Part shown: positions 3,978 to 53,906 of the stretch, one piece after another
Numbering within the stretch: the first letter of the stretch is position 1
How the letters are laid out: every line of letters begins with the position of its first letter
Origin: a virus
Lineage: Duplodnaviria; Heunggongvirae; Uroviricota; Caudoviricetes
Reading direction: 5' to 3' (one strand)
Length of the DNA stretch: 62,599 bases
Virus record (IMG/VR): IMGVR_UViG_3300045988_162118
Span: 1 to 62,599 of that record
Position numbers and translations under genes: made by a program
Notes under the pieces: model-generated
Databases searched by the model: none
Told to the model about the DNA's origin: nothing
What the model saw: only the letters and a program-made list of their open reading frames with translations

Positions 3978-4333
3978 AGCACCACGTCCTGTGTGATAGT
4001 TATATCCCTGATACGAATGGATATTTTCAACTTATCAAAAGCATCTCCCTCGGCTACTGACAAGCCAGAAATCGGTATGTCGGGTAAATCTACCGTCAGT
4101 TTTTGCAAAAGCATTGCCTCAACCGCAATTTGAACATGCGACAAGTTGGTCGGTTCGTGTTTAAACTGCGGTAAAACATTGCCCCATGACGGATCTCCGT
4201 ATACCTCACCCTGATAAGTGTTTAGCCACTCATATAAACGAGCGCCCCAGGCCTCCTCCTGGGACTCATACGTTTTTACGCCGGATAACTCCAGCGTCAG
4301 CAAAGGATCAATTTCGTTATTGTTGGCCATCAA
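3974..4333 (-). CDS. hypothetical morphogenesis protein
   Basis: 119-aa ORF translationally coupled between Sit and downstream structural ORF. Confidence 0.35.
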   Translation of the reverse strand: MMANNNEIDPLLTLELSGVKTYESQEEAWGARLYEWLNTYQGEVYGDPSWGNVLPQFKHEPTNLSHVQIAVEAMLLQKLTVDLPDIPISGLSVAEGDAFDKLKISIRIRDITITQDVVL

Positions 4334-7300
4334 TCAACTCTCGCGTAGTCATTCATCAACGGATCATCAATTGACAGTGGCACCGTGCGCATAACGCCCG
4401 GTTGAGGCGTGCTGACCTTTACGACAGTTCCCTGGCCTTTCGCCGAGTCTTTAGTGTGCTCTTCAATCCTGGCAAGCAATGAGGTCATCTGCGCAAACAG
4501 CCGCTTCGTTTCACCATCAAGTGAAACGGTATTATCAGCCAACTGCATTGTCGGCTTGGCACCGGAGCCGCCAAGGTCACTAATAACCTGTCCGTCTATC
4601 TGCATACGACCGGTTGGTTGCTGCAAATCGTTGGCGGCAGTCGTCACCTGGGACGTGGAGGCTGGTTCAGGCGCATTATTTTTCCGCATCCCCGGCGAGT
4701 TGCGGAGTTTATCAAATAGTCCATCAATCCCCATTTGTGCGCCGAGTTGGTCAAAGTAACTTGAGTTGCTGGCCACCGGACGCGCCTCTTCAACTGGCAT
4801 CGGAGTATCAACATACACATTGCCAGCTGCTGTTGCGGTCCCCTTCCCTCGTGCACGTTCTTCGAGCGTTCCCTGAACGACTTCCCGACGCATACCCCGG
4901 CCATTCATGAATTTGTTGACCAGATCGTTAACGCCAACAGCATTGCCAATTTTGTCTACCAGACCGCCTTTCTCAAACGGGCTATCACCAGGGGTAAACG
5001 CCAGGCCAGTAGACTGATCGATAACAGCGTTATCAGGCAGTGGTCCCCTCACTCCATATTGCGCCCCACCCTGTGCTCCTGCTCCAGGTGTATAGATTTC
5101 ACCACCTAAATAGCGAGCACGATGAGTATTGACCTTGATCGCGTACTCACGGTTTTCTTTCGATAAGTCACCTGTGCCTTTTTTCCACTTATTGATAGTG
5201 CCAAACCCAGCATTATATGCAGTGATGGCCTCGTTTAAGTCTCCATTGGCTTGCTTCAGATATTTGCTCATGAGAAGAGCCGCAGCTTCTGCCGATTTCA
5301 CAGGATCAAACGATTCACCTTCAGCTAAGCCAGTCTCTTCACGAGCAATCCCCGTGAACTGAAACATCCCCAGAGCACCGGTTTGGGATTTTGCATACGG
5401 ATTACCACCAGATTCAGTTGCAGCAATCGCGTAAAGAGTGCCTTCTGGAAGACCGTATTTATTCTCTAGTTCGGCAAAATACGGAGCCAACTTATCGAGA
5501 TTTGCCTTACCTTCAGCGCCAAGACTTCCGACTTTTACATCCAAGTTGCCATTGTTGTAGGTATCCGCAGCTTTCTGAATGTCATTCCTGGTGCCAGTGG
5601 TATTAAGCGACGATGATGACGAGCTATTTTGACCAATAGCTTTATCAATTTTCTGCAACGCGCTATTGCCCGTTTCTACGGCATTTGCATTGATAATCTG
5701 ATTAGCAGTTTCTTTAACTGTTTTATTGCTATCTTTCGCCGTGTCCAGTGCCGCATTTATCACGCGGGTAACAATATTAGTCTGTTTGGCATCGGATTCA
5801 GTTTTAGAATCAGATGTCTCCTGGTGGCTATTAACCGGAGCTTTTAACTCTGGAGTGATTTCTTTCGCATTAGCCTCGCCGATCGGATTGGGTATTTTTG
5901 ATACAATCATTGCCGCAGGGGTATTTTTAACGGCATCAACCGCTGCATCTAATGCTTTACCGGGGAAATTTTTAACCCCATCCCAAATATTACCAGCCGC
6001 CTCTTTAATATGTTTCCCTGGGTTCTTAATGAAATCAATTGCACTATCAATTGCATCACTGAAAACCTGTTTCAGGTTATCGACAGTAAAGAAGTCTTTG
6101 ATGGCATCCAGCTTTTCAAGCAGCTTATTAGATGTATCGCTAAACCATGCTGAAACAGCATCACCAATCTTTGCTGTGTAATCATCGAACTTGGTAGAAA
6201 TGGTGTCGCCAAGGTTAGAAATATATGTTTCTAAGTTGGTAATCCCACTATCAATGGCCTGGGCAATACTTTCCGTCGAAAATGATTGCAACATATTGCC
6301 GATATCCTCAAATCCAAGTGATTTGAGAACCTCACCAATGGCGCTGCTAATACCAGATACCAGTCCCCCCATATCAAGAACATTAGCTAACGTATAAGCG
6401 GCTTTTTGCTGGAATGATGGATCTTGTCCTGATTTAAGCCCAAACGCTCGACGTTGCGCTTCTGTATCATTCCAACCGGTTACCGCATCATAAATACCTC
6501 CAGCCACTGTGCCGACTAGGGGAATTGCGCGTAACGCCCCTTTACCAACTGCCTTTAATCCAAGTTTACCTGCTGCCCGGGCAGCCAAATCTCCGCCTTC
6601 ATGGGCGAGAGTCTTCTTGCCACCACCGCGTAGCATTCCTACAAGTTTCTTTGCCCCCAGAGCGCCAAAAGCGAGTGCTCCAGCTTTTTTCAGCATGCCA
6701 CGCCCCATTAACAACGACGCGACGCCACCGGCCCCCTTCCCTAACAGGCTAAATAGTTTGGACAGCAAGCCGCCCTTCTTTTTCCCGGTGTTTTTGGCTA
6801 TCTGATCAAGGGCGCGGAGAATCTTGTCATTGCCCTCTTTAATTTCGCTGGTCTGCTCCTGAAGTTCCTGAACCGTCCGTTTTTGGGTGTTAACCTGAAC
6901 GACATCGGCACTATTTTGCGATTTACGCCTAAAAAAACCTTTTCTACGGCTGTTATCGTCATTGCCACGAATCACATCGGCAATAGACTTTCTGGCACCA
7001 TTAAGCGATCCACCAACTTCTTTTGATATCCCGCCAAGCTCCTTCCCTGCTGCCCACAATGGACCAGCAACGGCATAACCTAACGCATCGACGGCACGAG
7101 TCTCTGAAGGGTTACCTATGCCTTCAGCTACTTTTGACAGTTTTTTTAATAAACCTGATTCAGCATTTAGACGCTCATCATCCTCTTTGCGCCTAGCCTT
7201 TTCAGCACGTTCAGCACGGGCATCTTCCGCTGCGGCCTTACTCCCTGACTTTCCAATAAAACGACCACGCGCATCGCGTTGGTTTTGGCTTTTTTGCGCA

Positions 7301-7722
7301 CCGCCTTTTTGACCGAACATTTCGCGAGCGTGTTCGGCTGCTTCGGTCCGTTGCGCCTTTACATCTTCTGTTATAGCCTTCTTGCGTCGTTTTTTACCCT
7401 TTCGCGTAGTTGATTTGGCCTGCGGTTCCTGTAGAGCAACATCCTCCTGAACTACACGAGAAACGTCCCCTAAATTAAGCCGTTTCATTGCCTCAACAAT
7501 AGGGTCCACTGATGGCGCATTGGCCACAAAGTCTGGCCGGGAATTTTCGATTGTGCGATTTAATGCCGACACACTGCGAGAGACAGGATCAACTGTAGCA
7601 ACTCGCCCCCCTTTCAAATCTTCAACGGCTTCCCGAATACCTGCAAGCTCTTCCAGCTCTTTTGCGCTGGCGGTTTCAACCGTCCTTATCACATCGTCAA
7701 TGTTGGCGTTTTTTCTTTCCAT
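4330..7722 (-). CDS. sit: tail injection transglycosylase / tape-measure-like protein with lytic transglycosylase domain
   Basis: 1130 aa; Gly/Ala/Lys-rich N-terminal half; SLT-like motif ATESGGNPYAKSQTGALGMFQF; size and position match P1 Sit. Confidence 0.75.
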   Translation of the reverse strand: MERKNANIDDVIRTVETASAKELEELAGIREAVEDLKGGRVATVDPVSRSVSALNRTIENSRPDFVANAPSVDPIVEAMKRLNLGDVSRVVQEDVALQEPQAKSTTRKGKKRRKKAITEDVKAQRTEAAEHAREMFGQKGGAQKSQNQRDARGRFIGKSGSKAAAEDARAERAEKARRKEDDERLNAESGLLKKLSKVAEGIGNPSETRAVDALGYAVAGPLWAAGKELGGISKEVGGSLNGARKSIADVIRGNDDNSRRKGFFRRKSQNSADVVQVNTQKRTVQELQEQTSEIKEGNDKILRALDQIAKNTGKKKGGLLSKLFSLLGKGAGGVASLLMGRGMLKKAGALAFGALGAKKLVGMLRGGGKKTLAHEGGDLAARAAGKLGLKAVGKGALRAIPLVGTVAGGIYDAVTGWNDTEAQRRAFGLKSGQDPSFQQKAAYTLANVLDMGGLVSGISSAIGEVLKSLGFEDIGNMLQSFSTESIAQAIDSGITNLETYISNLGDTISTKFDDYTAKIGDAVSAWFSDTSNKLLEKLDAIKDFFTVDNLKQVFSDAIDSAIDFIKNPGKHIKEAAGNIWDGVKNFPGKALDAAVDAVKNTPAAMIVSKIPNPIGEANAKEITPELKAPVNSHQETSDSKTESDAKQTNIVTRVINAALDTAKDSNKTVKETANQIINANAVETGNSALQKIDKAIGQNSSSSSSLNTTGTRNDIQKAADTYNNGNLDVKVGSLGAEGKANLDKLAPYFAELENKYGLPEGTLYAIAATESGGNPYAKSQTGALGMFQFTGIAREETGLAEGESFDPVKSAEAAALLMSKYLKQANGDLNEAITAYNAGFGTINKWKKGTGDLSKENREYAIKVNTHRARYLGGEIYTPGAGAQGGAQYGVRGPLPDNAVIDQSTGLAFTPGDSPFEKGGLVDKIGNAVGVNDLVNKFMNGRGMRREVVQGTLEERARGKGTATAAGNVYVDTPMPVEEARPVASNSSYFDQLGAQMGIDGLFDKLRNSPGMRKNNAPEPASTSQVTTAANDLQQPTGRMQIDGQVISDLGGSGAKPTMQLADNTVSLDGETKRLFAQMTSLLARIEEHTKDSAKGQGTVVKVSTPQPGVMRTVPLSIDDPLMNDYARVD

Positions 7723-7803
7723 GATCTTATCGCCTACCGCTTCGGTTTAAGTTTTTCTTCCAGTTTCTCCAACAGGAAAAACGCATAGGATTCAGTGAGC
7801 CTT

Positions 7804-8685
7804 TCAGCGTCCTGAATCGGTATACCCCCATACAAAACCAGGTTGGACACTAAGGTCTGATAGCTTTTCAATCCCCACCTGTGGAATGAAGTCGGTAGCC
7901 CGAAAGGGCACCCACAGACGGGTATACGCACCCTCTGTGGACTCCTTTGTATCCTGGTTTGGGCATTTGTGCGGCGGGAGACGAAGACGCATTTCGCCTT
8001 TATCGATGTAGCACGGTAAACCATGTTCGAGCTTTTCATGAGCCAGCCGGATGTGTGCCGCCAGCTTCATAAATTCAGTATCAATGGCCATCCGTTTGAT
8101 CGTTTCATAACGACGCTCAGCCTGCTCTTCACGAGTACCGCTAACATCGTTATAAAGTTCACACTGATAAGCGAATTCCCAAAAACGCAAATCAACGATC
8201 GCTTCTTTGAATTCCGCGTCGTCTTCAGGTGGCAATGCTGCACGGCGCATCTCCAGCATTTCCATTGCCCAACCATCAAGCGGCACGATACGCCATTGAT
8301 AAGGCACGCCCTCTACAGACACCTCAATATCGTCAATGAACGGTTCCACTTCCAGGACCTGGATATCTTCAGCCAGAGCATTCATATCGCAATCGTAATA
8401 ATGCTCTTTACCGCAATGTTTACAGGTGTAGGTGAATGTCTCGACCGGTGTTTCACGGGAGCCAGTAAATATCCACCATAACGCGGTAATCCGGTCCTGC
8501 GCCGTCCATGTCAGGGGATCATATTTCGCGGGTTCAGCCAGCAAGACTTTTAAATACGCCGTTGTCTGTTGTTCTTGTTCCTCCGGTGTTATCGAGTTGA
8601 AACGCATCGCATCAGCAATATTTGGCTGACGGAACTGGATCAATTCAGTTGGCCGCGATGGTAGCGGGAAAAGAGGTAAAAGCAT
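7804..8685 (-). CDS. hypothetical morphogenesis protein (pmgB position)
   Basis: 293-aa ORF upstream of sit on same strand. Confidence 0.35.
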   Translation of the reverse strand: MLLPLFPLPSRPTELIQFRQPNIADAMRFNSITPEEQEQQTTAYLKVLLAEPAKYDPLTWTAQDRITALWWIFTGSRETPVETFTYTCKHCGKEHYYDCDMNALAEDIQVLEVEPFIDDIEVSVEGVPYQWRIVPLDGWAMEMLEMRRAALPPEDDAEFKEAIVDLRFWEFAYQCELYNDVSGTREEQAERRYETIKRMAIDTEFMKLAAHIRLAHEKLEHGLPCYIDKGEMRLRLPPHKCPNQDTKESTEGAYTRLWVPFRATDFIPQVGIEKLSDLSVQPGFVWGYTDSGR

Positions 8686-8699
8686 CCTTGCTCCTTAAT

Positions 8700-9311
8700 T
8701 CAAAGAGAAAAACTAAAGCCCAGAAGGGAAGCTAAAGAACTTGAGGATTGGTTAAACGTGCTGTGCAATGCGAAGGTCATTGGGAATGACTTAAATTCCG
8801 TAACCTGATCCCGCGCATAGGTGACATCGCCGGTAGTGACCGGGAATACCGTCATCTCATTTTCCAGTTTGGTTAAACCGGAGGACAGCAACCGATAAAT
8901 ACGCACATTGAGCAAATATTTAGACGGTATATTCCCGGTACCGTCCGGATTGATCACCCGACCTTTTGCCGTCTTAAACCAGTCCAAAACGAGGCCATCA
9001 ACGGTATCCCTGACCATCATTGTTATCTGCCCAGGCGAACGCTCCGTTGGCTGAAGGATATTCCCTCCGCCGATTTTAATCGTTTCATATTCGATGCTGT
9101 AATCGTGGTAGGTAATATCTTTGGCAAAGAAGTCTGCTCCCTCCAGTCCATCAACTTCGACAGAGAACTGCCATCCTTGCGCGAACAGCATTTTGTTCAT
9201 GATGATTGACGTCAGCTTACCAACTTCCCGCTCACCAACGCCGGAGCCAAATAATGTCGTCGTTAATGCCGAAGATACATAAGACTTTACTGAAGCAAGA
9301 TTAAGCCCCAT
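8700..9311 (-). CDS. hypothetical structural protein (tub position)
   Basis: 203-aa ORF, same operon. Confidence 0.35.
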   Translation of the reverse strand: MGLNLASVKSYVSSALTTTLFGSGVGEREVGKLTSIIMNKMLFAQGWQFSVEVDGLEGADFFAKDITYHDYSIEYETIKIGGGNILQPTERSPGQITMMVRDTVDGLVLDWFKTAKGRVINPDGTGNIPSKYLLNVRIYRLLSSGLTKLENEMTVFPVTTGDVTYARDQVTEFKSFPMTFALHSTFNQSSSSLASLLGFSFSL

Positions 9312-9321
9312 ATCAGCCCCC

Positions 9322-9912
<591 letters not shown>

Positions 9913-9946
9913 TTAACCGATTCTACGAGTAGTCATTTGTGACAGG

Positions 9947-10423
9947 TCATTTTGCGCGCTTCAGGCAGCCATCTTCAGGTGCCGCGTTGAAAAGCTCTGC
10001 GGCCTTACGTAGCGTAAATGTTGCGATTTTTTTTCCGTCTACGTATGCATCGAATGTTTTAACTTCCATATCAGGGGTATCTGACCAAAAACCATACCAG
10101 TAACTATCACCCACAGAGGAACCGATAGAACTGATAGGATATTCATCATCACCAACTTTAAGCGTTATTTGTTCTTTTTTAGCATCAAATGACTCACCGC
10201 CAGGTTCTGTTTTCATGAGAGTGAGTAGTCGTGTTCCTACTTGATTGGGATCCGTATTATTAAATCCAACATCGCACTCAAATGTAAGCGTATAATTATC
10301 TTTGCTGGAAACAGCATAAGAACGAACACCATGAGTCTCGCCGGTTGACCATTTGCTTACATTTGCCATTGATGAAAACGGAGTAAGCAAAGCAAGAACT
10401 AGTAAAAATCGTTTGATGCGCAT
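9947..10423 (-). CDS. secreted protein with N-terminal signal peptide (superimmunity sim-region candidate)
   Basis: 158 aa; MRIKRFLLVLALLTPFSSMA signal-like N-terminus. Confidence 0.4.
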   Translation of the reverse strand: MRIKRFLLVLALLTPFSSMANVSKWSTGETHGVRSYAVSSKDNYTLTFECDVGFNNTDPNQVGTRLLTLMKTEPGGESFDAKKEQITLKVGDDEYPISSIGSSVGDSYWYGFWSDTPDMEVKTFDAYVDGKKIATFTLRKAAELFNAAPEDGCLKRAK

Positions 10424-10474
10424 TAATTTATCTCCTTTGGATATTAATATTTTAATTAGTTAACCACCATATAT

Positions 10475-11122
10475 TCACCATTCATAGGGTAAATTAAGCG
10501 CTTTTAAACCTTGCTGGAAAGTATTAAGAGATCCGTTTTTTTGTTGTTCCATTTTTTCGCGTGCAGCTTTCTCATACTGCTCCATCCGTTGGTTATACTC
10601 TTGCAATTCCTCCGGGGAGAGGTTTCCCATTGGGGAGTTTGTACCCGGCCCCCTGGCCCGTTCTTCAAGCGTACCCTGAACGTTTTGATGGCGCATTCCT
10701 GGGGCATTTCTGATTGAGTCAATGCCATTTCTTCCAACATCTTCTTTATTAACGGCATTGCTCGCCACCAGCACCCCCCAGCTAGGGATAGCAAAATCAG
10801 GAGCGGTTTCGCATGCCTTTACCATATAATCGAAAGAGCTTCGATTGATCTCGTTTGCGTCGGGATTTAATAGGCGAGAATATTGATATTTAGCATTTTC
10901 GTTGGTTGCGACTTTATACAGTTCCTGCTGCACCATCGCTTCAGAAAGTTTAAGGCGCTTCATATCTGACAGTAACTTCTTGCGCATGGATTCGTCTTCA
11001 CTGACAGCAAATCCGTAAACGTGCCCAAGGTATTTCGTATAATCGGTACAAATCTCCTTTACGCTTGATGCTGCATTAACAGTCCCAGGCATAAATAATA
11101 ACGGTAGTAATAGTTTTCTCAT
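10475..11122 (-). CDS. secreted SimC-like protein candidate carrying a Sit-like motif
   Basis: Start moved to internal Met (MRKLLLPLLFMPGTVNA signal peptide; track ORF starts at 11149); contains GMRHQNVQGTLEERARGPGT, near-identical to a Sit segment. Confidence 0.4.
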   Translation of the reverse strand: MRKLLLPLLFMPGTVNAASSVKEICTDYTKYLGHVYGFAVSEDESMRKKLLSDMKRLKLSEAMVQQELYKVATNENAKYQYSRLLNPDANEINRSSFDYMVKACETAPDFAIPSWGVLVASNAVNKEDVGRNGIDSIRNAPGMRHQNVQGTLEERARGPGTNSPMGNLSPEELQEYNQRMEQYEKAAREKMEQQKNGSLNTFQQGLKALNLPYEW

Positions 11123-14651: not shown

Positions 14652-14700
14652 TAGATTGCTCTAATCTGGAGTCACCTGGCGTTTTCAGTTTGAGGTCGGA

Positions 14701-14947
14701 GATGCAATCTGATTTTTTACAGTTAGCGATCGCTTTTGCAGGATATGTTTGTATTGGCTTCTGTGTATACATGATCAGCCGAAAAATGCTTGTCGATATC
14801 GACCGCAAAGAACAAGCAGAGAAGATCTTAGTATGGATTTTCTTTGGCGCGGTCTGGCCATTAGGGATCATGTTTGCTGCAACATTTCTTCTGATGTGGA
14901 TATTCACCCTTCCAGGTGATTTCTATAGAAAAAAAGCCAGACATTGA
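14701..14947 (+). CDS. small membrane protein
   Basis: Internal Met start of track ORF 14621..14947; two hydrophobic segments. Confidence 0.3.
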
Positions 14948-15070
14948 TACAATCGTTGCGGGTGCTTGAGGCTATCTGCTTCAGGCATTACCCGAAAAGC
15001 AGATAGAAGAAAGCCCCAGATAACATTACGCGTCCTGCAAGACGCTTAACATTAATCTGAGGCCATATCT

Positions 15071-15277
15071 ATGCTTAGCATACGTAGATTAGCCTCTTAC
15101 CGACCAAAAGGTCAAGGAGAAGCAGGCTATGAAGCAGCAAAAAGCGATGTTAATCGCTCTGATCGTCATCTGTTTAACCGTCATTGTGACGGCACTGGTA
15201 ACGAGGAAAGACCTCTGCGAGGTACGAATCCGAACCAGCCAGACGGAGGTCACTGTCTTCACAGCCTACGAATCTGA
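15071..15277 (+). CDS. mok-like overlapping reading frame
   Basis: 68-codon ORF in a different frame covering the start of the hok-like gene. Confidence 0.3.
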   Translation: MLSIRRLASYRPKGQGEAGYEAAKSDVNRSDRHLFNRHCDGTGNEERPLRGTNPNQPDGGHCLHSLRI

Positions 15278-15284
15278 AAGGTAA
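15129..15284 (+). CDS. hok: Hok/Gef-family type I toxin
   Basis: Not in ORF track (51 aa). AAGGAG RBS; MKQQKAMLIALIVICLTVIVTALVTRKDLCEVRIRTSQTEVTVFTAYESER, close to the Hok pattern LTRKSLCEIR...EVAAFMAYES. Confidence 0.7.
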   Translation: MKQQKAMLIALIVICLTVIVTALVTRKDLCEVRIRTSQTEVTVFTAYESER

Positions 15285-15360
15285 GAGACCTGGCGGGGAG
15301 AGATCTCCGCCACTCTTCGTGTGTCAGGTATCCTCAATGCACCCTTTCCTCTCCAAATAA

Positions 15361-20857: not shown

Positions 20858-20943
20858 GGTGAAATCGTGGCGATTTCACCTTGAAATTTTAGAGAGATTT
20901 ACTTTAAAAACAGTAGGTTAATAGTGAAATTTGAATGGCGAAA
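20858..20943. other. parS: parS partition site
   Basis: GTGAAATCGTGGCGATTTCAC palindrome (heptamer ATTTCAC, hexamer TCGCCA), AT-rich IHF-like spacer, second GTGAAAT...TGGCGA; just downstream of parB. Confidence 0.7.
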
Positions 20944-20945
20944 GT

Positions 20946-46342: not shown

Positions 46343-46849
46343 TTGAGTATTTTCAATAAACACGCACACCAGGAACGTCCGTATATCGTCATAGTTGATA
46401 TTGATGGAACAATATCAGAGGCAACTGAAGACAGACTGCATTTGCTTCCGCCACCAGGTAAAGGTGCATTAACAAAGGACTGGAACGAGTTTAATCTCGC
46501 CTGTGACACTGATACTCCCATAACTCCAGTTATTGATATTGTGCGCCAGTTATTTAACGTTTACACGGTCTGGTTTGTAACCGGGCGCTGTGAGATCGCA
46601 AGGGATAAAACACGAGCCTGGCTGCGGAAGTACGTAACAAACGGGGCTGAGCCTTTGCTATCTATGCGTCCTGCCACCGATGACAGAAATGACGGCCCAG
46701 CAAAGATTGATCTCCTTAAGAAAATTGGTCTAAGTAAAATCGCGTTCGCGCTGGAAGATAAGATTGAAGTGGCGCGTGTTTTCAGGAGGCACGGCGTACT
46801 TACGTTAATGGTCAGGGAGTATGAAAACGCGCTTCTCCATCAACAATAA
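46343..46849 (+). CDS. pap: HAD-like phosphatase
   Basis: YIVIVDIDGTISEAT (DxDGT HAD motif I); 168 aa. Confidence 0.5.
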   Translation: MSIFNKHAHQERPYIVIVDIDGTISEATEDRLHLLPPPGKGALTKDWNEFNLACDTDTPITPVIDIVRQLFNVYTVWFVTGRCEIARDKTRAWLRKYVTNGAEPLLSMRPATDDRNDGPAKIDLLKKIGLSKIAFALEDKIEVARVFRRHGVLTLMVREYENALLHQQ

Positions 46850-46865
46850 TTGCTCTAATAAATAT
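46849..46865 (+). promoter_or_regulatory. C1 operator-like box
   Basis: ATTGCTCTAATAAATAT beginning at last base of pap stop. Confidence 0.5.
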
Positions 46866-46947
46866 TGATTTTTAAAACAGAGAAAGTGAAAATAAAAACA
46901 TGCCGCAAGGCGCGGCATGTATCCAGTCAATCACAGGAGCTGAAAAT

Positions 46948-47034
46948 ATGAACACGGCATTCAAAATCATTATGGCCGCGATCTATTTCTGGCTGTTCTC
47001 TATCACTTTTGGCGGCATCGTCGCGCATGGGTAA
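46948..47034 (+). CDS. 28-aa hydrophobic peptide
   Basis: Not in track; AGGAG RBS; MNTAFKIIMAAIYFWLFSITFGGIVAHG; hairpin CATGCCGC-AAG-GCGCGGCATG just upstream. Confidence 0.35.
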   Translation: MNTAFKIIMAAIYFWLFSITFGGIVAHG

Positions 47035-47113
47035 GGGGAGTATATTAGCCATTTGGAACCCCACGGTCTCTTGCGGGTTTAATTAAGAACCCGCAAGAAA
47101 AACACGAATTGGG

Positions 47114-50100
47114 CTATATTTTTCCGCCTACGCCTTTAAACTTCTCAATAAACGAGACGATTTTCTGGAAAACTGCCTGTTTTTTCGTTTTATATTGCGG
47201 ATTTAACGGACTAAGTTTTGGTAATGTTTCATTTAATTCTGTGCCATTTTCGGTGGCATATTCGCGTTTTAAAGACGTGCGAATATAGCGTTTTGCAGCA
47301 TCTTCATTGAGATTTTCTTCTTTTATCAATGCTTCTGCTTCACGTTGCTGTTCGCGTTGAGCAAACGTAAAGAATGCGTCAATGATGCTGGCTTTGTCCG
47401 GTAAATCATCCAGGTTCGTTTGCTGAATAAAATCGACCACCAGGCCCTCTTTAGCACGGTTCCCTAGGCTTGAACGAATTAAGCGTTTGACCTCTTCGAT
47501 CATTTCGCCCTTGCCTTTATTTTGTCTGTTGTGTTCGAAAATCAGTCCAAGGATATAATCCAGGTTTATTTCCTGAGACTTCAGCAAATCGACCTCAAAA
47601 ACTACGTCATCCCAGTCAGTGGTTGATTTCTCTTTTTTCTCAGCTTCTTTCTCACGGCGCTGCCAGTCGCGAATATCGTTATAGGCAGAACGATAATCCT
47701 GAATCTTGCGATCAGCAGGGAGACGAATTGTTTGCAATTCAGCGAACTTTTCATCATCCACATAATGTTCTGCTTTGAATTTTTCTACCGCAACAGGATC
47801 GCTAAGATCGATTTGTTGCAGGGCTTTTAGCGTGGCAAATTCATCATAGTTTTGCAGGATGTTCTCGGCACGCAGGTATTCGCCAAACAGTTTAACGAAG
47901 TCTTTCTTCTCTTTTTCACTTTCAATACTGGTAGGGTCAGGGAACCGTTGTTCCAGTTCTGAAACTACTGCCATAAAGCCGCGTTTGGCTTCACCGGTGG
48001 CAGCATCAGTAAAACCTTCCATATACTCTGCATAACTCTTTTCTAACACCACATTTTTGGTATTTTTATCACCAAACAGCGTTATGGCATCAATGGTTGA
48101 GCGTTCCAGATCCCGAAAAGTGACAATGTTACCGAAGGTTTTAGTGGCGTTATAAATGCGGTTGGTGCGGGAAAATGCCTGCATCAGGCCGTGAAAACGC
48201 AAGTTTTTATCGACGAATAGCGTGTTCAATGTTGGAGCGTCGAAGCCGGTTAAAAACATCCCAACGACAATTAACAGATCGATATCCTGATTTTTAACCC
48301 GTTGGGCTAAATCGCGATAGTAGTTCTGAAAACCGTTACCGTCGGTGCTGAAGTTAGTTTTAAAATAGCTGTTATACTCACGAATTGCAGCGTCAAGAAA
48401 CTCTTTAGCACTGCTGTCCATTGCGCTGGTATCAAAAGTTTCATCGGAAATTTCACCAATGGCATTTTGTTCTTCATTAGCGGCAAAGGAGAAGATTGTC
48501 GCAACACGCAGCGGTTTATAAGTTGCAGATTTATTAGCGGCTTCCTCTTGTAACCGTTTAAACGCCGCGTAATAGGCTTTTGCAGCATCCACGCTGCTCA
48601 CTGCCAACATAGCATTAAAACCTTTTGCGCCAGGGAAAGTACGGTGCGTCTTCTGGCGGAAGTTATTCAGAATATATTGCGTAATTTCCTGTATACGCAT
48701 GGGATGAAGAAACGCCTGCTGATTTTCAGCCGCACTTAGTTTTTTCTCGTCGGTTTCTGTCTCTAAAGACTTAAACTGTGGCCGCACATCGTTATAGTCC
48801 ACCTTGAATTTGAGCACTTTTTCATCACGAATCGCATCGGTAATAACATATGAATGCAATTCACGACCAAATACGCTGGCGGTCGTTTCTGAGCCTAAAG
48901 CGTTTTCCGGGAAAATAGGGGTACCGGTAAAACCAAACTGATAATAGCGTTTGAATTTCTTCTTCAGGTTTTTCTGCGCTTCTCCAAACTGGCTGCGGTG
49001 ACATTCATCAAATATAAACACCACTTGCTGATTATATACAGGCAGGTCGCTTTCTGCTTTCATCAGGTTATTGAGTTTCTGAATAGTAGTGACGATAATT
49101 TTGTTATCGTCCTTATCCAGATTTCGTTTAAGGCCTGCGGTATTTTCCGAGCCGTTGACGCTGTCTGGCGAAAAACGCTGATATTCCTTCATGGTCTGGT
49201 AATCGAGGTCTTTCCTGTCGACCACGAAGAAGACTTTATCAATAAAGTCCAGCTCTGTTGCCAGACGCGCGGCTTTAAAGCTGGTGAGGGTTTTACCAGA
49301 ACCGGTAGTGTGCCAGATATACCCACCGCTTTCCGGTTTTGACCAGTTCTTCGCTGTAAAGGAGCTCTTAATTTTCCACAGAATGCGCTCGGTGGCAGCA
49401 ATCTGGTACGGTCGCATCACCAGTAGCGTCTGACTGCTGTCAAAAACGCTGTAGTTCACCAGAACATTAAGCAGAGTATGTTTCTGGAAAAAGGTAGCGG
49501 TAAAATCTTTGAGGTCTTTAATCAGCGTGTTGTCTGATTTCGCCCAGTTCATGGTGAAGTCAAAACTGTTTTTATCGCGCTTTGTTGTGTTGGCAAAATA
49601 ACGGGTATCGGTGCCGTTAGAAATGACAAACAGTTGCAGATACTTAAACAGGGAATTTTCGCTGTTAAAACTCTCTTTACTGTAACGATGTATCTGGTTG
49701 AAAGCCTCACGAATCGCCACGCCGCGCTTTTTCAGTTCGATTTGTACCAGTGGTAAGCCATTAACCAGGATCGTGACGTCATAACGGTTAGCATGAGAAC
49801 CCGTCTGTTCAAACTGCTGGATAATCTGCACCTTATTGCGCATGAGATTCTTTTTATCTATCAAATAGATGTTCTCAAGTCGCTCGTCATCAAAAATAAA
49901 GTCGCAAATATAGTCGATATGGATTTTACGGGTCTTATCCAGAATGCCATCGCTCGGGTTGTCCAGATACTGCTCCGTGAAACGCCGCCACTCGCTGTCA
50001 TTAAACACCACACCATTGAGGCTCTGAAGCTGTTCCCGAACGTTGGCCAGCATCGCTGACTGTGATTTTACCGAAATAAATTCATAGCCCTGATTCCGCA

Positions 50101-50230
50101 GGTCTTGAATCAGTTCACGTTCCAGGTCCGATTCGCTCTGGTAGCTGTCGCCTGTTGGCTCAGCTTTGATGTACTTATCAAGAACGATAAAGTTATTGGA
50201 TTCAGCAATGGTATGTGTTTGATGAGTCAT
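47114..50230 (-). CDS. hsdR: Type I restriction enzyme R subunit
   Basis: Start at MTHQTHT with AAGGA RBS (track starts 50290); about 1038 aa; helicase motifs TGSGKT and FDECHRSQ. Confidence 0.85.
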
Positions 50231-50351
50231 AGCGCATCCTTTGTGCCGTCTGGCAAGGGCCGGAAGGGAGTTAAGAGTGACTTCCGGCACGTAAAAAATA
50301 GTCTATATACAGACCGGATGTTAAGGTGGCCCGGTCGGTAGCAACGGTCAA

Positions 50352-51569
50352 TTAATTACTGACAGTTTCAGGTTTTGGGAAACTGAACAGTAAATCACGA
50401 TAGTACTCGTATTGTTTCTGGCGCAACTCGATTTCACGCGGGAGACCTTCGGTGATGGAAGCTGCGATTGCATCAAACTTATCTAGAATATCCACAATAC
50501 GCCCCTGTTCGTCTAAAGATTTTTGAGGGTGAGATGGGTATGGAATAGGTACTCTGACTTGTTTCAGTGCATTAGCATTAAACTGTGGTTGCCCGCCACC
50601 AGATACTAATTTATTAGCCTGTTCCCAAAAAAAATCACTTTGTGCAAAGTGCCAGTAATATTTGGCATTAATAATCGTTTCATTTAGGTTCAACTTTATT
50701 AAAAAACCAGCGTATACTGCTGGATAATCTTCTTCAAAAATCATTGTTTTACCAAAGGTTGCACCAGTCCTTGCCATGAGTAAATCATTTTTGTCTAAGG
50801 TATATTTCTCATTTTCCTCATTTAATTCAACGTACATTGGGTTTTCTTTCGATAGCTTCCCGTCTTTATTTATGTCAGTAATTCTCACGAAACGGGCATC
50901 TCCTGAGTCCATGGCTTTGGCTGCATATCCATATGTAAAATTCCCAATTTCCCCCAAAGTCTTCCACTCAACCTCACCCTCTTTAAAACTCAACAACTGG
51001 TCGCGATAGTAGTTGTACTGTTTTTTACGCATGTTAAGCTCAGCGGTAAGCTCAGCGGTAAGTGCAGTAAATTTATCCAGAATCCGAACGATTTCAGACT
51101 GGATGGCAAGGGATTTTTCCGGATTATCCGGGCAGGGGATTGGTACAGGTATCTCAATTAATTGTCCTTTAGTTAATTTTGCCCTTCCTCCCCCGGTAAG
51201 GAAGGGAAGGAAATTAACGATGCATAAATAATGATATAGAAATCTAGAATGAACTCTTTCTTTTCCTCGTACGACATGAACATGGTTGTTTGCCCAGAAT
51301 TTACCAGTTGCATATTGAATTGAATAATTTTCTAAACTAGCCGAGCCATCTTCTGCAATTAAGACATATTCACCATCGTGGGTATATCCATCCACATAGT
51401 CTTGAATGTTGTTAGCACCATAATAGGGCGTCTCGCCTGCAATGCGCAAAGAGGCTTTTACTGGCTTTCTTCCATTATTCGCTATTTCGAAGAGTGAAGT
51501 ATCACCAAGATTTCTCCACTCAACTTCAACCCCATCCAGCAATTTTTCCAGATAACTTAACTCGCTCAT
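50352..51569 (-). CDS. hsdS: Type I specificity subunit, Type IC-like
   Basis: 405 aa; two TRDs; central conserved region [28 protein letters not shown] with two TAEL repeats; second conserved region [16 protein letters not shown]. Confidence 0.85.
51037..51060 (-). repeat. 12-bp tandem repeat (2 units) encoding TAEL-TAEL in hsdS
   Basis: AGCTCAGCGGTA x2 on plus strand = ACCGCTGAGCTT x2 on coding strand. Confidence 0.8.
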
Positions 51570-53128
51570 TTTTGCACCTCGCAGCCTTCAATTTCAGCCA
51601 CAATCGCATCAATATCTTTACGCAACTGGTCGATTTTGCTGACCGTGGTTTTCAGTTCTGCATTCAACTCAGCGATATCGATAATTTCGCGAGTATCTTT
51701 CGCTTCAACATAACTGCTCACCGACAGGTTATAGTCATTCGCGACAACAGTCTCAAACGCAACAGATTTCGCCAGATGGGCAACATCTTCCTTGCCGGCA
51801 AATACCTGCATAATCTGTTCGATATGGGCATCGGTCAGGATGTTGTTATTAGTCTCTTTTTTGAATAGCTCGCTGGCGTCAATAAACTGAACGTTGGTAT
51901 CGGTTTTATGTTTAGACAACACCAGAATATTGACGGCAATGGTGGTGCCAAAGAACAGATTCGGTGCCAGTGAAATCACGGTTTCGACATAGTTATTGTC
52001 GACCAGATACTGACGGATTTTCTGCTCCGCACCGCCACGGTAAAAAATACCCGGGAAGCAGACAATCGCAGCACGACCTTTGGCAGAAAGATAGTTCAGC
52101 GCATGTAATACAAACGCAAAGTCAGCTTTGGATTTGGGGGCCAGAACGCCAGCTGGGGCAAAACGTTCATCGTTAATCAGCGTCGGGTCATCGCTGCCAA
52201 TCCATTTCACCGAATACGGCGGGTTAGAAACGATGGCATCAAACGGTTTTTCATCTCTGAAGTGCGGTTCAGTCAGCGTATTGCCCAGCTTGATATCAAA
52301 CTTGTCGTAGTTGATGTTGTGCAAAAACATGTTCATACGCGCCAGGTTATAGGTCGTATGGTTGATTTCCTGACCGAAAAAGCCTTCTTCGATGATGTGG
52401 TTATCAAACTGTTTTTTCGCCTGCAACAACAGTGAGCCGGAACCCGCTGCCGGGTCGTAGATTTTGTTAACGTTGGTCTGCCCGTGCATAGCCAGTTGTG
52501 CAATCAGCTTGGAGACGTGCTGCGGTGTAAAGAACTCACCACCTGACTTACCGGCATTTGCCGCATAGTTAGAAATCAGGAACTCATAGGCATCACCGAA
52601 CAGGTCAATCTGATGTTCGTTGAAGTCACCAAGTTTTAACCCTTCAACCCCTTTCAGAACCGCAGCCAGGCGGGCATTTTTATCTTTAACGGTGTTACCC
52701 AGGCGGTTACTGGTGGTATCGAAATCAGCAAACAAACCTTTGATGTCTGCTTCTGAAGGGTAGCCGTAAGCAGAACTTTCGATAGCAACGAAGATGCTGT
52801 TTAAATCTGCATTCAGTCTGTCATTAGTATTTGCTTTCGCAGCTACGTTGCAGAAAAGCTGACTGGGGTAGATGAAGTAGCCTTTAGTTTTGATGGCATC
52901 GTCTTTAATGTCATCAGTAATTACGCTGTCATCCAGTTTCGCATAACAGATACTGTCATCACCGGCTTCAATATAACTGGAAAAATTTTCGCTGATAAAA
53001 CGGTAGAAAAGTGCGCCCAGAACGTATTGCTTAAAATCCCATCCATCGACCGAACCCCTGACATCGTTAGCAATTTGCCAGATTTGACGATGAAGCTCTG
53101 CACGTTGTTGAATACTTGTCATTTTCAT
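51566..53128 (-). CDS. hsdM: Type I DNA methyltransferase M subunit (N6-adenine)
   Basis: 520 aa; NPPY motif ([11 protein letters not shown]); SAM-binding region; 4-bp overlap with hsdS start. Confidence 0.85.
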
Positions 53129-53259
53129 CCACTTATTTCAGGCTTATGTAATTGGCGGTGATTCTACAGCAACTTGGATGCTTTAGCAGTTCGGACATTA
53201 GGCTACGAATGACCTGCCTAGAGGTTTGTTAAGCCGCAAAGGGCTGGTGCTTTATGCCT

Positions 53260-53296
53260 GTGAGGTTTATAATTGTGTACACATAACGAGTACACG
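53260..53296 (+). promoter_or_regulatory. phd-doc promoter/operator
   Basis: TATAAT at 53267-53272 followed by GTGTACAC and GAGTACAC half-palindromes. Confidence 0.55.
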
Positions 53297-53304
53297 AGGT
53301 GTTT

Positions 53305-53526
53305 ATGCAATCCATTAACTTCCGTACCGCGCGCGGCAACCTTTCTGAAGTGCTCAACAATGTTGAAGCCGGGGAAGAGGTTGAAATCACCCGCAGAGGC
53401 CGTGAGCCAGCAGTAATTGTCAGCAAGGCTACTTTCGAAGCCTACAAAAAAGCGGCGCTGGATGCTGAATTTGCATCCCTGTTTGACACCCTGGACTCCA
53501 CCAACAAGGAACTGGTTAACCGATAA
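53305..53526 (+). CDS. phd: Phd antitoxin
   Basis: 73 aa [73 protein letters not shown], recognised as P1 Phd. Confidence 0.9.
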
Positions 53527-53906
53527 TGAGGCATATATCACCGGAAGAACTTATTGCGCTTCATGATGCGAATATAAGCCGCTACGGCGGCCTGCCTGGC
53601 ATGTCAGATCCGGGCAGGGCAGAGGCCATTATCGGGAGAGTTCAGGCCAGAGTTGCCTACGAAGAGATCACCGACCTTTTCGAAGTCTCCGCCACCTACC
53701 TGGTGGCTACAGCGAGAGGGCATATATTCAATGATGCCAATAAGCGTACCGCGCTAAACAGTGCGCTGCTATTTCTACGCCGTAACGGGGTGCAGGTATT
53801 TGATTCACCAGAACTGGCAGACCTTACCGTAGGGGCTGCGACCGGAGAGATATCTGTATCTTCTGTCGCCGACACGTTACGTAGATTGTATGGTTCTGCG
53901 GAGTAG
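53526..53906 (+). CDS. doc: Doc toxin (Fic-fold kinase)
   Basis: 126 aa; start overlaps phd stop (TAATG); Fic-like core [15 protein letters not shown]. Confidence 0.9.

Follow-up and report, generated by a model that had tools for sequence, protein, structure and literature searches.

The cassette at 47039..53228 (6190 bp) of the window, the whole 62,599-nucleotide stretch of DNA that was analyzed, is, as read from its sequence, a complete Type IC hsdM-hsdS-hsdR operon of the EcoR124 family, and apparently a functional one. All three genes lie on the minus strand: hsdM (51566..53128), encoding an N6-adenine methyltransferase subunit of 520 aa; hsdS (50352..51569), encoding a specificity subunit of 405 aa; and hsdR (47114..50230), encoding a motor/nuclease subunit of 1038 aa counted from its ATG. 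The genes are intact, their HsdM and HsdR products are nearly identical to the EcoR124 proteins, the junctions with P1-like DNA are located, the arrangement is prevalent among sequenced plasmids, and the target recognition domains (TRDs) are mosaic. We consider it very probable that the cassette is a functional EcoR124-family Type IC restriction-modification (R-M) system, which a P1-like phage-plasmid carries as an accessory module open to exchange.

The slot in the P1-like genome

Homology to P1 stops at 47038 of the window (P1 NC_005856 84482) and restarts at 53229 (P1 87970). Between these positions the cassette stands in place of the P1 pmgT-humD segment, and none of the nine P1 proteins from this slot is encoded anywhere in the window, as judged by tblastn. 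A previous reading made from the sequence alone had named the P1 genes that occupy the slot and had reported no UmuD-like ORF. The replacement of the segment and the absence of humD from the window are both borne out, whereas its "upl" is wrong, as P1 has upfM-O. That reading had also asked for a comparison with P1 synteny and allowed that the reference P1 genome might carry the same genes; the reference P1 has no hsd at this position.

Outside the cassette, ~55 of the 62.6 kb of the window align collinearly with P1 at 94-99% identity, a span that takes in the tail genes, rep/par, head, pac, c1 and cre. On the left, nothing of the flank is missing: pap, Op88 and a small ORF are all present. 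The right flank retains Pphd, phd and doc on the plus strand (53229..53906; phd ATG at 53305, doc 53526-53906), and the phd and doc products match Pfam PhdYeFM and Fic/DOC. The P1 RefSeq record notes that its positions 84263-84482 resemble DNA downstream of the EcoDXXI hsd genes and that 87969-88647 resemble DNA upstream of them. The junctions in the window fall within 1 nt of the ends of the stretches annotated in P1 as EcoDXXI and R124/3 flanks. With collinearity on both sides and junctions at published breakpoints, the window belongs to a P1-like phage-plasmid (Punavirus), as had been proposed.

Only a minority of the sequenced P1-like plasmids have the pmgT-humD content of the reference P1. 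The full P1-type slot occurs in 4 PLSDB records, compared with 262 plasmids spanning the hsd-type left junction; the right junction is spanned by 715. In a CRISPRi screen (PMC10695390), the P1 genes that the cassette displaces came out as non-essential, and most of them are absent from one laboratory isolate of P1. Because a non-essential slot sits between conserved flanks, recombination in these flanks can swap the module; we propose that such exchange would proceed by homologous recombination on the pap/Op88 side and on the Pphd-phd-doc side.

A broader proposal is that the pap-phd slot is a dedicated defense-cargo hotspot of P1-like phage-plasmids, in which hsd is one of many defense occupants. 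Part of this proposal stands. The slot is variable, with P1, P7, RCS47 and the hsd-type elements differing in content between the same flanks; pmgT-humD is one of eight published highly variable regions (PMC9603915); and phd/doc adjoins the slot. Defense systems have also been reported in P1-like phage-plasmids generally (bioRxiv 10.1101/2025.09.12.675607). However, none of 28 slot proteins from P1, P7 and RCS47, the three occupants sampled, matched any PADLOC model at E<=0.001 (PADLOC-DB from 2023; 6 proteins from P1, 9 from P7 and 10 from RCS47, plus other P1 slot proteins). By annotation, the alternative slot contents are hot, humD and early genes of the lambdoid type (Ead/Ea22-like, eaa, DUF551, ASCH). 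Moreover, of the genes once listed as nearby, phd/doc is indeed adjacent, but hok (15129-15284) lies ~32 kb off in another region, as does, at ~14 kb, the TerB-like gene (32786-33220), which is the core P1 gene tciA. In this small sample, different defense systems were not found to alternate at the locus, a provisional result. The hotspot inference is therefore weak, and we regard it as rather unlikely; an exchangeable accessory module is the reading that we prefer.

Integrity, family and predicted expression of the subunit genes

The sequence-only reading had described a complete operon at exactly these coordinates between pap and phd, with HsdR starting from an RBS-supported codon to give about 1038 aa, and this description holds. 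The hsdR ATG has AAGGA 7 nt upstream, and the open frame itself reaches a GTG at 50290. The hsdS ATG overlaps the hsdM TGA as ATGA, an overlap of 4 nt. None of the three ORFs contains an internal stop, all are uninterrupted, and the Pfam domains matched in them are full length, with E-values from 1e-44 to 1e-120, which excludes chance matches. Disabling frameshifts in HsdR and HsdM, raised earlier as a possible flaw, were sought and none was found. A prrC-like or other fourth gene was not found in the cassette, either in the ORF list or among the family matches. The GC content is 43.5% in the cassette vs 47.8% in the remaining window.

HsdM matches Pfam N6_Mtase (E=1.8e-120) and HsdM_N, and PADLOC assigns it to MTase_I. 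It is identical to EcoR124 HsdM (PDB 7bst_D) at 517 of 520 residues (99.4%, three substitutions), while the match to HsdM of the Type IA system EcoKI reaches 65 bits only. Its two motifs, DPAAGSG (residue 225) and NPPY (residue 302), are intact. HsdR shows the Pfam architecture HSDR_N, SWI2_SNF2/ResIII, T1R_D3 and EcoR124_C, and PADLOC assigns it to REase_I with 1615 bits. It aligns with EcoR124I HsdR (PDB 2w00) over residues 1-1038 with 2288 bits and ~98.8% identity; 12 substitutions lie within residues 1-969, and residues 890-1038 are identical. HsdR keeps D151, E165 and K167 of the PD-(D/E)xK nuclease, Q179 and Y183 of the QxxxY motif, GSGKT310 (Walker A) and DECH408. The HsdR catalytic and motor residues are needed according to mutagenesis (PMC2602864, PMC2475608).

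A Type I family is delimited by complementation, by cross-reacting antibodies and by amino-acid sequence (PMC3874165). The cassette has the three subunit genes uninterrupted, HsdM and HsdR sequences within the EcoR124 family, the conserved regions and TAEL repeats of HsdS, and the catalytic residues of HsdR and HsdM, including the AdoMet motif. The earlier assignment to Type IC, EcoR124-like, is thus confirmed. From these features we infer expression and activity.

It has to be considered whether the cassette is instead a silent or decaying remnant, in which the proteins are encoded but restriction has been lost. Decay does occur in relatives: hsdR and hsdM of phage 673R5 are annotated as fragments, and phi456 has an interrupted hsdS region. 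In the window, however, all ORFs are full length, every checked catalytic residue is present, HsdM and HsdR are ~99% identical to active EcoR124 subunits, and at least 23 contigs retain the identical HsdS. A remnant is therefore very improbable, and a functional operon remains the better description.

The cassette-specific region upstream of hsdM (53129..53228, minus strand), presumably the hsdM-hsdS promoter region, is divergent from Pphd; it is common to phage 673R5 and has no counterpart in P1 or P7. The hsdS-hsdR intergenic region (50231..50351, minus strand) contains the hsdR RBS and, ahead of hsdR, a promoter-like site, TTAACA-18-TATTTT at 50324-50295. This site is a consensus match only, and the cassette holds 10 sigma-70-like sites, no more than the 12.5 expected from shuffled sequence. 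In the EcoR124 literature, the hsdR gene of Type IC systems has its own promoter. On the 3' side of hsdR, folding gives a stable hairpin within the cassette at 47068..47098 (-22 kcal/mol; z = -4.4 on the plus strand and -3.5 on the minus strand), with no trailing U-tract in either direction. A canonical intrinsic terminator on the minus strand follows in the retained P1 flank at 46898..46920 (-20.7 kcal/mol, z = -5.3), consisting of a 10-bp stem and then TTTTATTTTC, and is likely the end of the hsdR transcript. Its loop carries a 1-nt insertion in phage 673R5 relative to the window.

The same flank retains the C1 operator Op88/OpmgT (46849..46865, plus strand), located by aligning it with the operator annotated in P1; the two agree at 16 of 17 bases, with one A/C difference, and over this stretch the window does not differ from P7 or 673R5. 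The PpmgT promoters just downstream of Op88 now face the hsdR 3' end, and a 28-codon ORF, with no canonical plus-strand terminator, lies between them. In hsd-type P1-like elements, the C1-repressed PpmgT would no longer drive pmgT-V. Upon prophage induction it might instead run antisense into the convergent hsdR and lower HsdR, coupling restriction to the lysis-lysogeny switch, although we consider such a role quite improbable.

The specificity subunit and the proposed mechanism

HsdS matches Pfam Methylase_S in two stretches. It has the same N-terminal, central and C-terminal conserved regions as EcoR124 HsdS, residue for residue, while both TRDs differ, with ~20-30% identity to the EcoR124 TRDs. 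TRD1, the N-terminal domain, is encoded at 51141..51512 (minus strand; HsdS ~aa 20-143) and TRD2, the C-terminal domain, at 50499..50942 (minus strand; ~aa 210-357). With neither TRD related to its EcoR124 counterparts, the target is not expected to be GAA N6 RTCG. The central conserved spacer carries two tandem TAEL repeats (51036..51059, minus strand; aa 171-178), starting at residues 171 and 175. EcoR124I, which has an N6 spacer, has two such repeats, whereas EcoR124II, EcoDXXI and EcoprrI, with N7, have three (PMC3874165). For the window we infer a bipartite target sequence with the spacing of EcoR124I, in which the two repeats would fix an N6-type spacer and place the methylated adenines 7 bp apart.

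Among the 120 best HsdS homologues, all of which carry generic names, TRD1 occurs at >=95% identity in 29, partnered with ~5 classes of C-terminal TRD, and it is also found in the C-terminal position of some homologues. For TRD2, 82 of the 120 reach >=95% identity, and its partners are ~25 classes of N-terminal TRD. This distribution suggests that the TRDs recombine as modules, probably being reshuffled by recombination in the conserved hsdS segments. The hsdS alleles at the slot may be viewed as a combinatorial library of specificities, exploitable once methylome data tie TRDs to half-sites. The window HsdS is 100% identical to a public protein, and the at least 23 public contigs (draft assemblies) that encode it have it in the P1 context, as here; GCA_023877955.1, GCA_900195745.1 and GCA_044153525.1 are examples of assemblies with the element. 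In PLSDB and 5,426 complete E. coli genomes, the exact TRD pair occurs on three chromosomes only, in a non-P1 island. With each TRD as query, a search of the complete set of PDB chains (E<=1) found no solved TRD resembling either one; the matches were only to the conserved linker of EcoR124 HsdS or at chance level.

By analogy with EcoR124I, we propose that one HsdS and two HsdM would assemble into a methyltransferase. Its target, asymmetric and bipartite, would be set by the two TRDs, and a single adenine per half would be N6-methylated. At an unmethylated target, two HsdR would join the methyltransferase; their SF2 motors would pull DNA in with ATP, and the PD-(D/E)xK nuclease would cut at a distance. 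In a lysogen, incoming unmodified phage or plasmid DNA would be restricted, while host and prophage would be marked.

Comparison with known systems

The closest comparison is with EcoR124I and EcoR124II, the Type IC prototypes of plasmid R124, which share the hsdM-hsdS-hsdR gene set and order with the window. EcoR124I has the same number of TAEL repeats, and P1-derived sequence adjoins hsdR in EcoR124 as it does here. In contrast to EcoR124, the C-terminal TRD of the window is followed by a longer linker resembling the central region, and the system sits on a nearly complete P1-like genome instead of a conjugative plasmid. An ordinary plasmid with P1-derived flanks around hsd, as in R124-type plasmids, would fit one PLSDB plasmid class that retains only 84 bp of P1 sequence by hsdR, in agreement with the 84 bp that the P1 annotation records for R124/3, but this reading of the window is contradicted by its ~55 of 62.6 kb of collinearity with P1 (94-99% identity) and by its complete left flank, and it is extremely improbable.

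At the EcoDXXI hsd locus, the P1 breakpoints match those of the window. The title of Tyndall et al. 1997 (Mol Microbiol 23:729) concerns the link between EcoDXXI hsd and P1. EcoDXXI differs in having three TAEL repeats and the target TCA N7 RTTC (PMC3874165), whereas the window has two repeats. EcoprrI is Type IC like the window (PMC3874165), but the gene for the PrrC anticodon nuclease lies within its operon; the window has no prrC, its hsdM and hsdS overlapping by 4 nt, and so is not of the EcoprrI type.

The phages phi456 (OR339795) and vB_EcoM-673R5 (ON470615), and plasmids such as NZ_AP018397, carry the cassette in the same slot. Outside the TRDs, hsd-bearing Punavirus and P1-like plasmids have 96-98% nucleotide identity to the window cassette. 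They carry other hsdS alleles, and in 673R5 and phi456 both TRDs differ from those of the window. The presence of hsd in the P1-like slot is thus already known, having been reported in 1997 and being found in hundreds of sequenced plasmids, and the window is an ordinary example of it. As a discovery it matters little, P1-like phage-plasmids having long been recognized as carriers of Type IC hsd genes. The practical value lies in the annotation: a P1-like phage-plasmid with an EcoR124-family Type I R-M system and an uncharacterized TRD pair.

Organization and borders of the cassette

By its sequence, the window is a phage-plasmid of the P1 type. Collinearity with P1, at 94–99% identity, covers about 55 of the 62.6 kb (tail-fibre region, rep/par, head genes, pac, c1 and cre), with gaps in the sim, rlf, par/rep and pap–phd regions. 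P1 homology ends at position 47038 (P1 NC_005856 position 84482) and restarts at 53229 (P1 87970). The cassette therefore spans 47039–53228 (6190 bp), and its GC content is 43.5%, compared with 47.8% elsewhere in the window. Reference P1 does not carry these hsd genes at this position. None of the nine proteins of the P1 slot, pmgT–humD, is encoded anywhere in the window; for humD this agrees with the sequence-only reading, which saw no UmuD-like ORF.

The same reading described a complete three-gene hsd operon, and consecutive minus-strand ORFs with all expected Pfam domains at full length indeed fill 47114–53128. These are hsdM (53128–51566, 520 aa; HsdM_N and N6_Mtase, E=1.8e-120), hsdS (51569–50352, 405 aa; two Methylase_S halves) and hsdR (ATG 50230 to stop 47114, 1038 aa; HSDR_N, SWI2_SNF2/ResIII, T1R_D3-like and EcoR124_C), labeled by PADLOC as Type I MTase, specificity subunit and REase, respectively. 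The hsdM TGA and hsdS ATG overlap as ATGA. An AAGGA motif 7 nt before the hsdR ATG agrees with the proposed HsdR length of about 1038 aa from an RBS-supported start; the open frame runs further upstream, as far as a GTG at 50290. No internal stop was found in hsdM, hsdS or hsdR, and HsdR and HsdM carry no hidden disabling frameshifts. HsdR keeps D151, E165, K167, Q179, Y183, GSGKT(310) and DECH(408), residues that are needed for cleavage according to mutagenesis (PMC2602864, PMC2475608), and HsdM keeps DPAAGSG(225) and NPPY(302). The cassette contains no prrC-like fourth gene.

The flanks are retained from P1. On the right these are Pphd, phd and doc; on the left, the end of pap, the C1 operator Op88/OpmgT (46849–46865) with the PpmgT promoters, a canonical intrinsic terminator on the minus strand (46920–46898) common to P1 and P7, and an unannotated hydrophobic 28-codon ORF (46948–47034, plus strand). 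This ORF, MNTAFKIIMAAIYFWLFSITFGGIVAHG, has a CAGGAG RBS, lies directly downstream of the C1-controlled PpmgT promoters, and is conserved in P1, P7 and 673R5 apart from one synonymous-site change and an A-to-T amino-acid replacement; that stretch carries no annotation of it in the P1 RefSeq table, and the ORF has no Pfam match. The terminator would end the hsdR transcript in hsd-type elements; reference P1 has no minus-strand gene immediately upstream of it. This is a possible hint that of the two arrangements the hsd one is older. The retained C1-controlled PpmgT promoters now point at the hsdR 3′ end, and the sole hairpin between them and hsdR (47068–47098) has no plus-strand U-tract, which makes induction-dependent antisense transcription across hsdR conceivable, if quite improbable.

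Slot variability and prevalence of the cassette

The pap–phd slot is variable. In P7 it holds about 8 kb of upf genes, an IS903 and humD; in RCS47, Ead/Ea22-like, DUF551, eaa, ASCH, hot and humD. In the laboratory P1 isolate OP279344.1 (del res, del mod; record positions 80748–81830), a shortened pmgT is followed directly by phd. This isolate lacks pmgU–humD, so the slot content is dispensable in the laboratory. Tolerance of replacement at the slot is also explained by its P1 genes, which were non-essential in a CRISPRi screen from which upfM was left out (PMC10695390). Among eight variable regions of P1-like phage-plasmids, pmgT–humD is number 8 (PMC9603915). Defence systems have been surveyed in P1-like elements, with PrrC (Type I RM) among those named (bioRxiv 10.1101/2025.09.12.675607, a 2025 preprint). 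As to the suggested defence-cargo hotspot, the slot is variable, but when the slot versions of P1, P7 and RCS47 (28 proteins) were scanned with PADLOC, no model matched, and a "defence island" is not supported. Nor are the supposed neighbors close: the TerB-like gene (32786–33220) is tciA, a gene of P1 itself, about 14 kb off, and the Hok/Gef-family toxin gene (15129–15284, plus strand; 51 aa, PF01848 E=1.3e-20) is in the rlf variable region, at a distance of about 32 kb.

The Hok/Gef ORF sits inside a 0.7-kb non-P1 segment (14666–15358) in place of P1 rlfA/rlfB. At 9941–10982, two minus-strand ORFs (158 and 224 aa) take the place of the sim (superimmunity) region of P1; their N-termini resemble signal peptides, and neither has a confident Pfam match. 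The partition/replication region 20891–25512 is not P1-type (parA has about 65% DNA identity to P1) and encodes an initiator of the Rep3 family (306 aa) and a T5orf172-domain protein (269 aa). PMC9603915 describes an alternative p0111-type replicon, which this region may represent.

The hsd cassette in the P1 slot is long known and very common. P1 RefSeq notes describe P1 84263–84482 as similar to DNA downstream of the EcoDXXI hsd locus and 87969–88647 as similar to DNA upstream of it, with a separate note on 84399–84482 (R124/3 hsd flank); these stretches end or begin at the window breakpoints, on the right side within 1 nt. The title of Tyndall et al. (1997) already concerns this link between P1 and hsd loci. 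The cassette also occupies this slot in phages phi456 and vB_EcoM-673R5. Among PLSDB plasmids, 552 match a 6.5-kb query over at least 80% of its length; the 300-bp left junction is spanned by 262 and the right hsdM–phd junction by 715. Another plasmid class has only 84 bp of P1 flank beside hsdR, the R124 situation. The full reference-P1 slot occurs in only 4 plasmids. Among 25 evenly spaced rows of the left-junction matches, the hsd junction (8/25) and P1-like sequence with other slot content (9/25) are about equally frequent. A related cassette, 82.8% identical across 76% of the query, lies at 4119–10052 of Klebsiella phage vB_KpnS_p4727 (PQ492289.1), an unannotated 111-kb record; EcoR124-like systems may thus also be carried by other phage-plasmid lineages.

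The hsdS allele and its recognition domains

The exact 405-aa HsdS matches a public protein, P0001, found on 28 contigs; the places read have the order pacA-lpa-pdcB-pdcA-doc-phd / hsdM-hsdS-hsdR / pap-pmgS. Coverage of the 6.5-kb query by PLSDB plasmids reaches 95% at most, so the hsdS part differs there. A search of 5,426 complete E. coli genomes yields the full allele in three chromosomes only, and in the one inspected it lies in a CP4-like island outside P1 DNA. The E. coli G5 chromosome (NZ_CM127462.1, 5763–11771) carries the allele at 98.1% DNA identity without P1 flanks, its island neighbors being an IS5-like element, a GTPase, an Ag43 pseudogene, an antirestriction gene and yeeU/cbtA.

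Identities were compared region by region across the 120 best HsdS homologues. The C-terminal target recognition domain (C-TRD, about aa 210–357) recurs at 95% identity or more in 82 of these with about 25 N-TRD classes, the N-TRD (about aa 20–143) in 29 with about 5 C-TRD classes, and both together in 7. On these identities the pattern is the classical modular one, and it matches the TRD exchange described for Type IC enzymes (PMC3874165). The N-TRD also occupies the C-terminal position in several proteins that carry it twice (homologues P0014, P0016–P0020, P0022 and P0025; N-terminal identity 88–100%, C-terminal 89–91%). Judged by domain content, these proteins correspond in nature to EcoR124I-NT, an engineered symmetric subunit, and a palindromic bipartite recognition site would be expected for them. 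No half-sites are predicted for the window HsdS, since its TRDs resemble those of no solved structure or named homologue.

Comparison with EcoR124

The identification as Type IC (EcoR124-like) is correct, given the near-identity of HsdM and HsdR to EcoR124 and the conserved HsdS regions. HsdR aligns with EcoR124I HsdR (PDB 2w00) over residues 1–1038 (2288 bits), with 12 substitutions counted in residues 1–969 and identity throughout 890–1038, and HsdM differs from EcoR124 HsdM (7bst_D) at 3 of 520 positions. HsdS has the N-terminal, central and C-terminal conserved regions in common with EcoR124 HsdS, whereas both TRDs differ. From the near-identity to EcoR124I, an M2S1 complex would methylate adenines in both halves of a bipartite target, and R2M2S1 would translocate and then cut unmodified DNA. 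The sequence-level steps of this mechanism are directly observed; we infer the expression, activity and specificity of the hsd system. Restriction in a new host would be held down via the R1 assembly intermediate, not ClpXP (PMC12707154).

The TAEL repeats noted in the sequence-only reading number two (residues 171 and 175), as in EcoR124I (GAA N6 RTCG, methyl interval 7), from which we infer N6-type target spacing. In contrast, three repeats go with an N7 spacer in EcoR124II, EcoDXXI and EcoprrI (PMC3874165).
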